A DNA stretch of 64,000 nt from a virus (Duplodnaviria; Caudoviricetes). The position numbers and the translations under genes were made by a program. This document shows, one piece after another, positions 42,367 through 48,303 of this stretch. Each line of letters opens with the position of its first letter. Positions within the stretch are counted from its first letter, which is position 1. Where the stretch lies: positions 64,001-128,000 of the IMG/VR virus record IMGVR_UViG_3300014000_000001, one strand, 5' to 3'. A model generated the notes under the pieces. That model was given only the letters and a program-made list of their open reading frames with translations, searched no databases and was not told where the DNA came from.

Positions 42367-44334
42367 ATGGGTATGACTCAAATCGGCGGTGGTTCAAATA
42401 ACAACGACCGCAAAAATGATCGCGATAACAACAACTACGGTAATGACCGTGGTCGTGAGCGTTCTCAAGAAGATCGCGATCGTGCTGATCTTCGCGGCGC
42501 AAGTCAGAGCTTGCGCCAAACAGCAGCTAACCCATTCGGTACGGCTGTTTCAACTTCGCGCTCTCTAGGAGCACTCAACAACTACACTTCAAACTACGTT
42601 GCTGCAAAAACCCGTGGTAAATCAATCGATATGAAAACCTTCGTGGTTGAAGAAGGGGTTGCAGTTCCATCGGTAGTGATTGCAGCGATTGCAAGCAAAG
42701 ACAATCAAAAGTTTGTTATTTCGCACGCAATCATGTTGGTGAACAACGCCCAACCACCTGCTCCTTTATTGGATCAAAACATCCAAGGCATCATGTACCG
42801 TGACAACACCACATGGGCAGATGCTTACGATGATAAATACCAAGCTGCAATCATCGAAGTGGTTGAGCGTGATTTAGCGGAAAAGGTGGAATTCATTTCA
42901 GCAGGTGCGACTGCTGTAGATTATACCTTTATTCCAACTGAAAAGTTGTTGAATGAAAACAACTTCCAATCATTACAGTTGGACAACTTGATCTTAAACG
43001 TAATGAGTGGTATTGAAGCAGTTCGTGCAATCGAATCTGACGATACATCTCGTGACATTAAACCATCTAACTCAAACCTAGATGCACAAATCGTTGCTGA
43101 TGTATCATTACAACCATCAACTTCAACTCAGCCAAACGGTGATCCATTGGCAGAAGACTTCTTGATTAAGTTGTCAGAAGTACCGAATGATCGTCGCGAT
43201 CGTAAGCGTAACGAACCACGTTCATTAAACCAAACAGGTGAAAGCAACAACCGAGCTTATGGTGCGGTATCGGGCCGTATTGATTTTAAATATGTAGAAC
43301 CAGTTCAAGTAGCTCGTGGATGGCGTCCACAACCAGGTGATTCAGCTTGCTTTATCCCTGAGTTCATTATCGCTGGTTTCGATGTATTGGATATGCAACC
43401 AAGCTTAACACTGATGTTGCAATTGATTGCATCCGTTGGTATCTTGGATTCTCGTAATCCTCCGTTTTATCTTGATGCATTCTTACCTGCTAACTTAACC
43501 AATAACAGTTCTCGTAACTTAGGTGCGTTGCAGGCGGAAATGCAAGATCCTGAAAATGGTCAACGTTTGGAACGTCTGGAGTTAAAACCATCAACAGACA
43601 TGATCACTTTCCAAAAGTTCGTGACTGCCGCGATTCAGGAAAAAGTATCTATTGCAATCGAAATCCCAACTCAAGGTCCATTGGTTGGTTTGTTAAACAC
43701 CTTCGATCAAGCAGTAGATTACAATGGTCGTGAAGGTACTGAAGCCGCTTACTTCAATGGTTTAATTGTTGAAGCTGCTGATGTATTGACTGAAGGTGCA
43801 TTCAGTGACATGTGGACTCCTGGTACACCAGTAATGTTACGTAAACGTGCAATCATTCCAACTGGTTACTGGATTGATGGTCAACAAAACAAACGTGATT
43901 CACGTGAGTTTGGTTACCTTTACTATGCGAATGTGGATAACCCACAAGAAGCTTATGAGCTTTCAGTACAGTACGATAAGTCATTCGACATTGATGATCA
44001 ATTGATTGCAGCCGCTGAACGTCGTCGTTTAATCGAAGATGTACAAGGTAGCAATTTCGTACAAACTGATAACGTAAGCCGCGTGTATTTCAATCCAGAA
44101 TTCTTCGCATGTTTGCTTGATGCGATGAACAGCTCAGGCATGGCGCCAGCAATTGGTAACGCAGCTTATGCTGGTCGTGGTCAATCTCGTCGTCGTGTGG
44201 ATGACAGCAACTACCTTGACAGTGGTCGTCTGGAAAACTCTTACCAACGTTACAACGGTAATAGCCGTGATGATCGTGGTTACAACTATAACTCACGTGG
44301 TTACGGTGCTTCACGTAACTGGCGTATTCGTTAA
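42367..44334 (+). CDS. chmA: Chimallin, major phage nuclear shell protein (phiKZ gp54-like)
   Basis: 655 aa between the gp52-like gene and nvRNAP beta'; IP.GYW.D....KRD.R.F.YL and RVYFNP.F motifs; highly biased codon usage; own promoter and terminator. Confidence 0.85.
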   Translation: MGMTQIGGGSNNNDRKNDRDNNNYGNDRGRERSQEDRDRADLRGASQSLRQTAANPFGTAVSTSRSLGALNNYTSNYVAAKTRGKSIDMKTFVVEEGVAVPSVVIAAIASKDNQKFVISHAIMLVNNAQPPAPLLDQNIQGIMYRDNTTWADAYDDKYQAAIIEVVERDLAEKVEFISAGATAVDYTFIPTEKLLNENNFQSLQLDNLILNVMSGIEAVRAIESDDTSRDIKPSNSNLDAQIVADVSLQPSTSTQPNGDPLAEDFLIKLSEVPNDRRDRKRNEPRSLNQTGESNNRAYGAVSGRIDFKYVEPVQVARGWRPQPGDSACFIPEFIIAGFDVLDMQPSLTLMLQLIASVGILDSRNPPFYLDAFLPANLTNNSSRNLGALQAEMQDPENGQRLERLELKPSTDMITFQKFVTAAIQEKVSIAIEIPTQGPLVGLLNTFDQAVDYNGREGTEAAYFNGLIVEAADVLTEGAFSDMWTPGTPVMLRKRAIIPTGYWIDGQQNKRDSREFGYLYYANVDNPQEAYELSVQYDKSFDIDDQLIAAAERRRLIEDVQGSNFVQTDNVSRVYFNPEFFACLLDAMNSSGMAPAIGNAAYAGRGQSRRRVDDSNYLDSGRLENSYQRYNGNSRDDRGYNYNSRGYGASRNWRIR

Positions 44335-44411: not shown

Positions 44412-45687
44412 ATGTTTCAACGACATATCGATCCAGACTATCCTAATTTCACCTATGACCCAGCAGTTGTGGTGGCTTTAGATAACTTGGATGATTACTT
44501 TAAAGAGGACTCATCGGAACGCGAAGTGTTTATCGCAAACGACTTTCAGGTGGATACGGAAGACAAACGTGAACATCTTGTAGATATGTTAACCAAAACA
44601 TATAGTCGTGAATTTCTTGATGAACCAATCAATGGTGCAAATTCCTTGTTTGAGAAAGTTGCTCCGTCAATGTGGATACGTCCAGTGGGTAATGGTAAAT
44701 TTGTTCAACCTAAGTTTCTATCCATGCTCACTAAAGCACTCACTCGTGATCGAGTGAATATGGTGCAATATGCGATGGACCCAAGTTATAAACTACCCAT
44801 TACTAAAACTCCATCTGGATTACTTAAAACATTCTTAGATGCTGGGTTCCCACGTGGAATGAAAGCATTCCATGATCATTTCGATGAAATCATGGATATC
44901 CTAATCATGAATCAATATCGTAAGCGTGAAGCTCGTCGTAATGCAATAGGTGAAGGGCGTAGAACCTCTGCTCGTAACACGATGGATTACATTGCGATGT
45001 GTATTGAGAAATACCGAGATTCAATCTTTTGTGAACATTTACCTGTGCCGTCTAATCAGGTATTTATCATGGAAAAGCGTGGAAAGAATAAAGTCTCTGA
45101 AGTACCACTTATGCAGTACGCGTTTGATGCGGTACATACGGTGACTTCTATTTCATCACGTATCCGTGGTGTGTCTCCACGTGAAGCAGATCGACTTGAT
45201 TATAAAGTCAATGATCTGATGAGTGAGTTCTACGAGAAATACTCTCAAAATTATCTTACTTCTAAACCTGGAGTGTTCCGTAAAAACAGTTATGGTACTT
45301 CATCGTCGTTTAATGCACGAGCAGTAATTGTATCTCGTCAAGGGATTCAAAACTACGATGAGATCATCATCCCTTATTCATTAGGATTTAAAATATTCGA
45401 ACACCATATTGCGAAAATCTATATTGATGATAAGCAGTTTAGCCCAATTGATATTTTTGAAATGCGTGCTGAATATGCAAAACAGTTTAATAAAGGTATT
45501 CATAATGTGATGAACACCCTAGTCAGTGATTTCTGGGGTGGACGTGGATGGCCGAATAACTTCTTACGCCATCCATATTTATCAAAATTATCCTCTCAGT
45601 TCTTCTACATTCCAGAAGTAGGAACTGACCCTTTAGATACCACGATACAATTATCCCCAATGGTATTAAAAGGTCCCAACGCAGACT
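44412..45687 (+). CDS. Non-virion RNA polymerase beta' subunit (phiKZ gp55-like), exon 1
   Basis: K.G.FRK..YG, F.ARAVI, R.P.L and GPNAD motifs; interrupted inside NADFDGD. Confidence 0.9.
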
Positions 45688-46122
45688 CAACCATTTCGTT
45701 CAAATGTCGGGGTCCTTATCATGGTAACATGGTTCGAAAAACTTCGTTAATTGCTGGAACGTACCCTAAAGCCGCTTAGCTAGTATTAGCGTCGAAAGAC
45801 AGAAACAATAAAGCGGATGGTCTAAGCTTAAATGAAAGCTTATCTGTTTAGATAGGTGCTAAGGATCGTGTTTAATGGGCAATCAGCAGCCACGTTTGCA
45901 TAGGCTTCAAAAGAGTAATGGAAACAGGTTCGACGGTCGTGAGGGTTGCGCCTCTTAGCCGATTCATGGATGAACGGTGAAAATGAAGCGTCCTAGGATA
46001 AGTCCCACAAGGATAATGTTAGGATGGTGGTATGACCTATAGATTCTCGAAAGAGATGAACAAAAGGAACATTTAGTTTTAAAGATTACATAAAGTGTGG
46101 TTCAGTAATGTGGAGAAAAAAG

Positions 46123-46881
46123 ATGTTAACCATTCTCGAACATATGGACTACGAACACCCAAACCCTGCAGTTATTAGCCATACTCAGGGTCGTTATGTC
46201 TTAGACAAAGACACTAAAATTGTCTATGATAACTATCTGAAAAAAGAAATTAATCCTGATCCGGATAGTGGGTTATATCCGATTAACGTCCTTGAACAAT
46301 ATAACATGACATACTGGGAATTATACATGTTGTCGTTCAAGGCAAATCATATCCCCACTCACGATTTCTTAAAAGCTCTAGGAAATGGCGCTATATTTGC
46401 TTATGTAGCACACCCCACTATCGATGCGGACGAGTTATCGATAGATCAGAATATACCTAGTCGGGATTTATCCTGGTTCATCGATGTGAAATGTTCAAAT
46501 ATAGCTGGAGCCCGGTATATTCCGACGTTTACTCGTTATGTGATGGATAACGATTTTAATATTTATCAATTAGGTGATGGGTCTTTTAAAAAGATTAATG
46601 AACCAATCCCTTGGGAAGCTGAAAATGTGGAGGAACAGCTTAATGATATAATTGTATTTCTTCAGAGAGATGATAATGTTTGGGAAGAAGTTTATTGGAT
46701 TGACCTTGTTGGGATAATGTTTCTAGAACCCAAAGATGATCCAATATTTGTAGATCATCTATTTACATCAAGACAGTATATATTTAATCAAATACCTCTG
46801 AAATTAGAAGATGTCGAAAGCGGTGATTGGTTATCACAAAATATCGATATGATTTTAGATGAAAGAGACGATGAGGATTAA
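46123..46881 (+). CDS. Intron ORF1: acidic paralog of the HNH endonuclease lacking the HNH motif
   Basis: GGAG RBS before ATG 46123; blockwise similarity to the N-terminal half of ORF2. Confidence 0.7.
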   Translation: MLTILEHMDYEHPNPAVISHTQGRYVLDKDTKIVYDNYLKKEINPDPDSGLYPINVLEQYNMTYWELYMLSFKANHIPTHDFLKALGNGAIFAYVAHPTIDADELSIDQNIPSRDLSWFIDVKCSNIAGARYIPTFTRYVMDNDFNIYQLGDGSFKKINEPIPWEAENVEEQLNDIIVFLQRDDNVWEEVYWIDLVGIMFLEPKDDPIFVDHLFTSRQYIFNQIPLKLEDVESGDWLSQNIDMILDERDDED

Positions 46882-46883
46882 AT

Positions 46884-48017
46884 ATGTCTAGCAAAAACAC
46901 TAACCGACCAATTCATCGCTGGCACCACAAAAACAAAGCGATATCCTATACTTTAAACCGTTTTGAATATGATCGATTGTTAGGTGTTGTAACAGATGTC
47001 GCCAATGGAGATATTATTCAGTTAATTGATGGGTATTTTCATTTAAATGATTTTATCTTTAATAAATTGACTGAAGCCGAAGCCTGGATGTTAACTCATA
47101 AACCCTTAAACATACCTGCTTGGGATTTTATCAGGGCTTGGAAGAATAACGAAATTAAGATCATAGGTAATTCAAGAAACCCTTCTAAAGATACTACGTT
47201 CTGGAAGTTTAAAATAGAATCTAGCTATTATCCTGGTTTCTATTACATTCCTGGTTACACGAACTACGTTGTTAACGAGAGTGGTCGAGTTATATCATTA
47301 TTTAAAGGGATTGAATTACGATTTCATTCTAACGGTGATGGTTATCTAACAGCGAATATGGTTTCGGATGACTCATTGAACGGCGTAGTTCCTATCCACC
47401 CGTTAGTTGCTTTTACTTTTAAGGATTGGAGTTTAGAGGATGTTATCAATAATGAAATAGATCATATTGATGGTAATACTGAAAATACTCATGAAAGTAA
47501 TTTAGAATTCGTATCTCAAGCAGAAAATATTAAGAGGATAGCTAGAAATAACTACTACGGTAAGAGAACTCACCATTGCGATATCTATTATCGGGATCTT
47601 AAAACAGGAGAAAAAGGTATTGTTAAAACCCAACGAGAACTAGCTAACCGAATTAGTGATTTAGGTGCGAGTACGATACAGAACCATCTAAGTAAATCCA
47701 AACCCAACGCGACCCTAAAGTCAAGATATGTAATCGCATATGTGAAAGATGAATCAGATATACAATACCTAGATGGTTTAGATGCTAAGTATTTTGATCT
47801 GCGTTCTGGTTCCCAGGCTAGAGCGACGCTGATAAAGAATATAAGCACTGGTGAAATCAAGCGTTTCGATAAAATGAGAGATGCTTTTAATTACATCAGT
47901 AGTATTATTAATATTACATTTAAACCATTTAGTGATAGGTTGGCGAAAGGTATTCAAAAAGATTTTGATGGTTATATCTTTAAATACGAAGATATAACAG
48001 ACGATTGGATTTTATAA
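46884..48017 (+). CDS. Intron ORF2: HNH homing endonuclease (NUMOD4-like, HNH_3, C-terminal NUMOD1-like repeats)
   Basis: IPGY.NY.V...GRV.S, GYL, IH.LVA.TF, IDHIDGN..N....NLE.VS..EN; two C-terminal K.GE-helix repeats. Confidence 0.9.
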   Translation: MSSKNTNRPIHRWHHKNKAISYTLNRFEYDRLLGVVTDVANGDIIQLIDGYFHLNDFIFNKLTEAEAWMLTHKPLNIPAWDFIRAWKNNEIKIIGNSRNPSKDTTFWKFKIESSYYPGFYYIPGYTNYVVNESGRVISLFKGIELRFHSNGDGYLTANMVSDDSLNGVVPIHPLVAFTFKDWSLEDVINNEIDHIDGNTENTHESNLEFVSQAENIKRIARNNYYGKRTHHCDIYYRDLKTGEKGIVKTQRELANRISDLGASTIQNHLSKSKPNATLKSRYVIAYVKDESDIQYLDGLDAKYFDLRSGSQARATLIKNISTGEIKRFDKMRDAFNYISSIINITFKPFSDRLAKGIQKDFDGYIFKYEDITDDWIL

Positions 48018-48118
48018 CTATAAACCAACTGAACCACACTTTATGTAATCTTTAGGCTAAAAAGATTTAAACTGTTCTTATGATTAGATACAAACTAATC
48101 ACTTAGGATACAAACCGG

Positions 48119-48303
48119 TCGACGGAGATGAGATGGTCTTGTCTCTTCATTTAGATAAATACACAGCAGATCTGTGGAGTTCAACTCGTCCTTCCGAGGG
48201 CGCATTGGATCAAAACAAAGCATTATCGTATTCAGGAGATTTAGATCTCTCTAAACCGATGATCCTTCAATTCTATCGATACCTAAGTCTCGATAAGAAG
48301 TAA
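48119..48303 (+). CDS. nvRNAP beta' subunit, exon 2 (absent from the ORF track)
   Basis: (F)DGDEMVLSLHLDKYTADLWSSTRPSEGALDQNKALSYSGDLDLSKPMILQFYRYLSLDKK*. Confidence 0.9.

Follow-up and report, generated by a model that had tools for sequence, protein, structure and literature searches.

A group I-type intron of a predicted nucleus-forming jumbo phage was found to carry two genes: beside an intact HNH homing endonuclease gene lies a second open reading frame (ORF), whose product is a truncated, catalytically dead paralog of the same I-HmuI-like family, kept by selection. The stretch analysed here (the window) comprises 64,000 nucleotides (nt), positions 64,001 to 128,000 of the IMG/VR virus record IMGVR_UViG_3300014000_000001 (G000; 232.8 kb, 232,790 bases), and the intron resides in a chimallivirus gene for the beta' subunit of the non-virion RNA polymerase (nvRNAP). 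The upstream frame, ORF1, probably encodes a maintained, non-catalytic accessory protein, and the downstream frame, ORF2, encodes the putative nuclease.

The homology and colinearity of the two frames, proposed in an initial annotation made from the sequence and its translations, were confirmed by pairwise and profile comparisons. BLASTP aligned ORF1 with ORF2 at E = 2e-7 and 28% identity over 145 amino acids (aa), spanning both of the blocks quoted in that annotation, and hhalign gave 99.3% probability and E = 2.8e-20 over 184 columns, with ORF1 residues 10-215 colinear with ORF2 residues 12-197. The similarity reaches further than the two blocks, into the first HNH strand and helix. Using ORF1 as a query against 1.8 billion representative proteins, phmmer retrieved, apart from orthologs, only full-length members of the endonuclease family (P0004, P0005 and P0006, at 2e-9 to 2e-4), and ORF1 is accordingly classed as a paralog of ORF2. 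No match to ORF1 was found in Pfam or PHROG. Its layout comprises the N-terminal domain of the family (N-domain), a NUMOD4-like sheet, the first HNH strand and helix, and an acidic tail of low confidence. From an alignment of 17 sequences, AlphaFold gave a model of ORF1 that can be relied on at residues 10-200 only, where the predicted local distance difference test (pLDDT) stands at ~70-86; it drops below 50 at residues 202-252, and a single-sequence model (pLDDT 37) was unusable. When the alignment-based model was compared with BFVD, ~170-200 of its residues matched HNH endonucleases of the chimalliviruses Goslar and PA7, with E values of 5.7e-7 to 7.6e-6. The best structural match of the model was I-HmuI, at a weak Z of 5.2; Foldseek against the PDB returned nothing significant, with I-HmuI on top at E = 0.25.

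The alignment of ORF1 with ORF2 ends at the catalytic DH position. ORF1 had been described as devoid of HNH residues, which holds for all the later residues of the motif but not for the DH dipeptide itself, which is kept in the window (VDHL) and reads EH in an ortholog of 86% identity and KL in one of 55% identity. Missing from ORF1 are the motif residues DGN, N201, N206-L207, NL/NLE, EN and N215, of which DGN, N, NL and EN do not vary within the family, together with the ~140-residue C-terminal DNA-binding region, the loss of which had been correctly recognized. The combination of DH with a metal-ligand Asn or His, by which an active HNH enzyme is identified, is therefore absent. The strong acidity noted at the outset was likewise recovered: the isoelectric point is 4.3 and the net charge -29, with values of -26 and -31 for the orthologs.

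Constraint on ORF1 was assessed among its alleles, with ratios of non-synonymous to synonymous substitution rates (dN/dS) calculated by the Nei-Gojobori method and Fisher tests applied to non-synonymous versus synonymous changes. Three alleles, namely that of the window, one of 86% identity (P0002, on a 238.6-kb contig with the tandem kept) and one of 55% identity (P0003, on eight contigs and followed by an ORF2-type gene), are all intact, and each adjoins an ORF2-type gene. A fourth, ~9% diverged, comes from a wastewater run and spans the ORF1-ORF2 junction over 1,332 nt with no indel. Between the window and contig L006, dN/dS is 0.17 for ORF1 (synonymous divergence, dS, 0.42) and 0.036 for ORF2; against the L007 type, the ORF1 value is 0.36-0.39 (dS ~1). 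The N-domain is the part under strongest constraint (0.08-0.17 for the N-terminal 90 codons), and the last 100 codons stand at 0.36-0.43. Fisher tests gave p = 1.2e-14 for the whole of ORF1, 0.003 for codons 150-252 and 9e-5 for codons 200-252. In neutral simulations at the observed synonymous divergence, the ORF1 frame stayed open in none of 5,000 runs. Because dS is high and dN low, it is the ORF1 protein that is constrained, and not an element of the RNA or DNA. The negative charge (-26 to -31) is held in all alleles, even where the sequence of the tail varies. ORF1 is thus under purifying selection and not decaying; the retention of a dead paralog suggested by the initial annotation withstood these comparisons, in which neither a lack of homology nor neutral decay was seen.

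ORF1 is positioned such that its translation could be coupled with that of ORF2. As first described, they are separated by 2 nt (TAA at 46879-46881, then AT, then ATG at 46884) and each is preceded by a ribosome-binding site: GGAG lies 7 nt before the ATG at 46123, and GAGGA lies 6 nt before the ATG of ORF2, inside the final acidic codons of ORF1. In the L007 allele, GAGGA is found 7 nt before the ORF2 ATG and the ORFs overlap by 11 nt. The start of ORF1 had to be revised, from 46108 to a likely 46123, because the orthologs lack the upstream ATG and gene callers choose the second one. A wastewater metatranscriptome contig of 238 nt, 100% identical to the 3' part of ORF1 (46621-46858) at a depth of ~22, gives a weak hint of transcription, given that DNA carry-over is possible.

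ORF2 is, as predicted from its sequence, an intact I-HmuI-like HNH homing endonuclease. Its product comprises the N-domain, a NUMOD4-like sheet, an HNH domain (D193 H194 ... N206 ... N215) and the C-terminal DNA-binding region, and D193, H194, N201, N206 and N215 are invariant in an alignment of nine family members. The beta-beta-alpha-metal motif of the I-HmuI/HNH_3 type, DH ... N ... N/H, is complete. The Pfam HNH_3 score of 20.2 bits lies under the cut-off of 24.8; a profile of the middle domain of the family matches I-HmuI (PDB 1u3e) residues 8-105 at E = 1e-14, including DH...N...N.

The 2,431-nt insert that houses both genes behaves, on sequence grounds, like a group I intron on four counts, and its features are collected with those of the genes in the table. 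It interrupts the universal catalytic motif NADFDGD as NAD/FDGD: exon 1 stops one base after ...LKGPNAD, with the first letter of the Phe codon, beyond which the sequence is non-homologous, and ligation of 45687 to 48119 yields a 486-aa product with NADFDGDEM. The final base of exon 1 is U and that of the intron is G (48118). As read by eye, with no tool prediction, the GGUC part of an internal guide sequence, GUCGG followed by GGUC (GUCGGGGUC), would pair with the exon-1 end GACU to form P1, with a U.G pair at the splice site, and GUCGG, directly 5' of the P1 part, would pair with the exon-2 start UCGAC to form P10. P1 with its U.G pair, P10, the terminal G and the exact restoration of the reading frame, by which group I introns are recognized, are all seen here. 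With regard to the conserved catalytic core (P3-P8, with the guanosine-binding P7), cmscan aligned the full RF00028 model (positions 1-253) to 45691-46059 at 19.9 bits and E = 0.007, below the gathering score of 50; an equivalent below-threshold match was obtained for the ortholog L007 (19.9-21.1 bits over the two), and a first Rfam scan of a 6-kb stretch had returned no match. A natural allele without this intron (L040; GCAGATTTTGACGGAGAT) reads ...GCAGATTTTGACGGAGATGAGATG, encoding an uninterrupted ADFDGDEM (also GCAGATTTTGACGG), and the ligated-exon site of the window is CGCAGACT followed directly by TCGACGGAG. Neither a spliced nor an intron-less junction was present among the contigs from four runs mapped to the stretch, although contigs cannot show absence. 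A ribozyme 40-mer had no exact match in viral or metagenome collections, and megablast of the locus against phage records gave none.

Because the whole ribozyme core lies upstream of both ORFs, the cargo would sit in a loop after P9. This ORF-bearing loop is closed by a perfect stem of 27 bp. In L006, three stem positions are changed, matched on both arms; in the L007/L036 allele, the distal sequence is wholly different and still pairs, with one mismatch in the fold. The stem is thus conserved as a structure and not as a sequence.

Features of the interrupted nvRNAP beta' locus (window coordinates)
Feature	Position	Strand	Basis
Exon 1, nvRNAP beta' N-terminal subunit (phiKZ gp55-like)	44412..45687	+	phrog_2987 'RNA polymerase beta subunit', E = 4e-74; tblastn to jumbo-phage nvRNAP beta' genes
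Group I-type intron, 2,431 nt	45688..48118	+	Exon ligation; RF00028 match; intron-less allele L040; phiKZ/PA7 HNH ORF at equivalent locus
Putative ribozyme core (P1-P9)	45691..46059	+	cmscan alignment to RF00028
Candidate internal guide sequence	45706..45714	+	Pairing read by eye
Stem, 5' arm, 27 bp	46080..46106	+	Perfect complement of 48028-48054
ORF1, 252 aa (alternative upstream ATG 46108)	46123..46881	+	BLASTP, hhalign, BFVD, purifying selection; GGAG at 46112-46115
ORF2 ribosome-binding site, GAGGA	46873..46877	+	Sequence
ORF2, 377 aa	46884..48017	+	phrog_59/phrog_959, E = 1e-18; family alignment; I-HmuI profile match
Stem, 3' arm	48028..48054	+	Perfect complement of 46080-46106
Exon 2 (FDGDEMVLSL...LDKK, stop)	48119..48303	+	Ligated reading frame; 56-aa frame also called in sibling contigs

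Comparison with related contigs indicated that the two ORFs and their host genomes have had different histories. The core is ~99% identical across the window, L006, L011 and L007, in which the ORFs differ. In the flanking genes (chimallin and exon 1), dS among these phages is 0.045-0.08, and between the window and L006 it is 0.42 for ORF1 and 0.37 for ORF2, or 5-9 times that of the flanking genes. The two ORFs therefore travel together, given that their dS values are similar and far above those of the flanks. Over the cassette as a whole, dS of 0.37-1.0 amounts to 5-20 times that of chimallin and exon 1, and in comparisons of the ORFs with the L007 type it is saturated. It is within the 27-bp stem that identity breaks off; thus, the two ORFs and the distal stem behave as one exchangeable cassette (46080-48054), the history of which is much deeper than that of the genomes that host it.

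The same codon is contested by other elements. Among contigs in which the downstream 211-aa gene is identical in every letter, at least five allelic states were found at this one catalytic codon. In L007-L010 (also L027-L031), an extra ORF-less, intron-like insert of ~461 nt follows GPN (L007:5095-5562), its insertion point corresponding to window 45680/45681, so that a 7-nt micro-exon, GCAGACT, is left between the introns inside the NADFDGD motif; phages with this insert have flanks ~98.6% identical. The insert resembles the 5' part of the main intron in places, at ~70-75% identity, and an Rfam scan of the insert gave no match. L033 has an upstream intron with an HNH gene of its own (297 aa; L033:562-1455), and L040 has the upstream intron alone (L040:181-690), the main intron being absent. 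In L033 (2438-3700) and L035 (2350-3606), a mosaic downstream intron is spliced 2 nt further on (NADF/DGD), differs from the main intron in its first ~100 nt and at its 3' end, and carries as cargo a single intact endonuclease of the ORF2 family (418-420 aa) without ORF1. Since sibling and distant introns do without it, ORF1 is not generally required by the intron or the family; in the alleles compared it is specific to ORF2-type cassettes. As a side observation, six independent assemblies of the 55% allele (L007-L012) break ~350 nt into ORF2, at approximately window 47230, in a conserved stretch that encodes YPGFYYIPGYT, and L036 and L037 start at this same breakpoint, which suggests co-occurring variants that share the stretch.

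The origin of ORF1 was approached with trees built on the 200 residues shared within the ORF1/ORF2 family. The best trees place ORF1 beside P0006/P0012 and ORF2 beside the 418-aa type with support of 60-88, but a joint ORF1+ORF2 clade was not rejected by the approximately unbiased (AU) test (p = 0.106), so either tandem duplication or a second invasion may be the source. The ORF1 branch is very long, at 2.8 changes per site. Residues 212-237 of ORF1 were aligned to the extreme C-terminus of the family by MAFFT, hhalign (E = 0.34) and hmmsearch (conditional E = 0.07); the match, which is not significant, would mean an internal deletion of the catalytic and DNA-binding parts. No remnants were found in other frames. 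An internal duplication within the family was considered and is not supported: residues 1-92 of I-HmuI could be aligned with the N-domain in the ORF1 model (Z = 5.2), but hhalign of the N-domain with the middle domain matched just 8 residues common to the overlapping cuts. A weak third match in the same genome (L003, E = 0.02) proved to be a chance match inside unrelated ORFs.

ORF1, probably a maintained accessory protein, has lost the metal-binding HNH half and the C-terminal DNA-binding region, has become strongly acidic, and is read from the same intron loop as ORF2, the two being inherited as one recombination cassette bounded by the stem. Because DNA cleavage by such a protein is impossible and DNA binding improbable, ORF1 most likely acts via the ligand of the shared N-domain, through which it would tune ORF2-type nucleases in their activity, timing or localisation, for instance as a competitor or inhibitor. 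That it is a direct regulator or partner of ORF2 is less likely than not, and so is a dedicated nuclease partner that inhibits, times or escorts ORF2 (e.g., into the phage nucleus) or disarms rival endonucleases that contend for the same RNA polymerase codon. A complex prediction for ORF2 with ORF1 (alignments A3 and A2) gave a score of 0.01, mark 0.32, which counts neither for nor against binding, and N-domain charges, ranging from -7 to +4 across the family, give no pointer to the ligand. Several observations weigh against a maintained accessory protein. ORF1 was found in this one phage group only; tblastn against 50,697 phage records and a pattern search of IMG/VR recovered none, and the ESM Atlas gave no usable match. 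Near-identical siblings (L033, L035) carry a single endonuclease in the intron and no ORF1, and more distant relatives are also single-ORF. The C-terminal 100 residues are less constrained (dN/dS 0.36-0.43) and the last 50 have low fold confidence, the long branch is what would be expected after loss of function, and the sole hint of expression is the 238-nt metatranscriptome contig mentioned above.

Decay of endonuclease genes is the normal life cycle of homing elements, and ORF1 could accordingly be the functionless wreck of an older resident endonuclease, killed by an internal deletion and followed by ORF2 as a second endonuclease gene, its frame kept open only for translational coupling or polarity to the ORF2 start. 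The truncated architecture, the marginal match of residues 212-237 (which fits an internal deletion), the length of the branch, the location of the ORF2 ribosome-binding site within ORF1 with a 2-nt spacer or an 11-nt overlap, and the absence of ORF1 from sibling and distant introns all favour such an origin. Coupling, however, would purge stop codons but leave amino-acid changes free to accumulate, whereas ORF1 has a dN/dS of 0.17 as a whole and of 0.08 in its N-domain, at dS 0.4 (p = 1e-14), and the last 52 codons still give p = 9e-5. Moreover, the acidic charge is held where the sequence is not, and the ~9% diverged allele runs through 1,332 nt without indels. A wreck is thus considered unlikely, and the preference for a maintained accessory protein stands.

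Two more specific functions were weighed. Acidic immunity proteins are an established principle for inhibiting HNH DNases, as in the colicin E9-Im9 pair, and ORF1 might similarly be an immunity or decoy factor that neutralizes the nuclease of a competitor, or its own, and protects the carrier genome in co-infection. The site is highly polymorphic among near-identical phages, with at least three ORF1+ORF2 alleles; the cassette dS of 5-20 times the flanks implies frequent exchange, and the intron HNH of PhiPA3 serves competition between phages (PMC11620839). Against this stand the lack of detectable similarity to known immunity proteins or DNA mimics and the association of ORF1 always with ORF2 and never with rival types; a decoy role is judged quite improbable. 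Degenerate LAGLIDADG proteins help organelle introns to fold and splice, and maturases of that kind classically arise when the nuclease activity is lost but the ORF is kept; the unusually large loop and long closing stem of this 2.4-kb intron would suit such a helper. The maturase role, one of the four suggested in the initial annotation beside inhibitor, partner and import adaptor, is nonetheless disfavoured by the net charge of -29 and isoelectric point of 4.3, which make RNA binding unlikely, and by sibling introns that have the same core and cargo of similar size but no ORF1. ORF1 might instead serve as an import adaptor that brings ORF2 into the phage nucleus, since nucleus-forming phages import selectively and gp210 of PhiPA3 is imported (PMC11620839); here, too, the N-domain charges point to no ligand, and there is no known testable import signal. 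Maturase and adaptor together are regarded as highly improbable, and a non-catalytic accessory protein of the ORF2-type cassette remains the favoured account of ORF1.

The genome setting is that of a chimallivirus. A chimallin-type nuclear shell protein is encoded at 42367-44334 (Pfam PF25677; phrog_4795, E = 1e-41), and because this gene is present, the source record is classed as that of a nucleus-forming jumbo phage, as predicted from its sequence; described nucleus-forming phages share just ~25% protein identity with it (tblastn). The interrupted gene comes next after chimallin. Gene callers add to exon 1 the first 30 codons of the intron, which gives a 455-aa ORF with its end at 45779, and call exon 2 as a separate 56-aa ORF at 48133-48303; thus, the spliced 486-aa subunit is missed by automatic annotation. 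In the whole record, no uninterrupted sequence coding for DFDGD or DYDGD was found, and the corresponding site of the virion RNA polymerase beta' gene is therefore also interrupted, differently spelled, or located in the missing 14%.

Intron endonucleases of nucleus-forming phages have recently been shown to be weapons between co-infecting phages. If ORF1 is indeed a partner of ORF2, this would be the first phage group I intron with a homing cassette of two proteins, which evolves as one exchangeable unit. Should ORF1 regulate, escort or block nucleases, it would add a layer of control to homing and phage-phage interference, and would provide a clear case of a selfish-element gene gaining a new function. 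The locus can, in addition, serve as a natural experiment, since phages that are otherwise ~98% identical differ in the presence of the intron, in a second intron 7 nt upstream and in cargo, so that cassette exchange at an essential catalytic codon can be studied directly.

Group I introns with HNH genes are already known from the RNA polymerase genes of chimalliviruses, and degenerate endonuclease genes are known as well. A literature search revealed no description of a conserved and selected, nuclease-dead acidic paralog co-inherited with the active endonuclease inside one phage intron. In phiKZ, gp56, gp72 and gp179 are listed as intron endonucleases (PMC10914365; PMC11512511), although one long-read transcriptome gave no sign that the introns of phiKZ are spliced (PMC10914365). 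The gp55/gp56 locus of phiKZ, and that of PA7, have the same order as the window, with chimallin, the beta' N-part, an HNH ORF and a small exon-2 ORF, and ORF2 is related to their endonucleases (tblastn, 24-28% identity, E down to 8e-22 for PA7). The predicted group I introns of these two phages have a single ORF, whereas that of the window adds a dead paralog before the endonuclease. PhiPA3 gp210, a nicking homing endonuclease of the HNH type encoded within a group I intron, is used when co-infecting phages compete (Birkholz et al., Science 2024; PMC11620839). The gp210 intron, like that of the window, splits the DFDGD motif of a chimallivirus RNA polymerase beta' gene; however, it lies in the virion RNA polymerase gene (gp211/209) and not in the non-virion one, and has a single ORF, an accessory paralog not being described.

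I-HmuI of the Bacillus phage SPO1 (PDB 1u3e) matches the middle domain of the ORF2 family, which adds an N-terminal domain of ~115 aa; compared with I-HmuI, ORF1 has neither the catalytic half nor the C-terminal helix-turn-helix part. Homing endonucleases that have degenerated or been domesticated are known to persist without cleavage, some of them in a new role, as exemplified by the truncated I-TevIII of T4, the LAGLIDADG maturases and PLE CapR (PMC8096241). These retained proteins bind DNA or RNA, whereas ORF1 has lost the DNA-binding region, is strongly acidic, and lies beside its intact paralog in one and the same intron.

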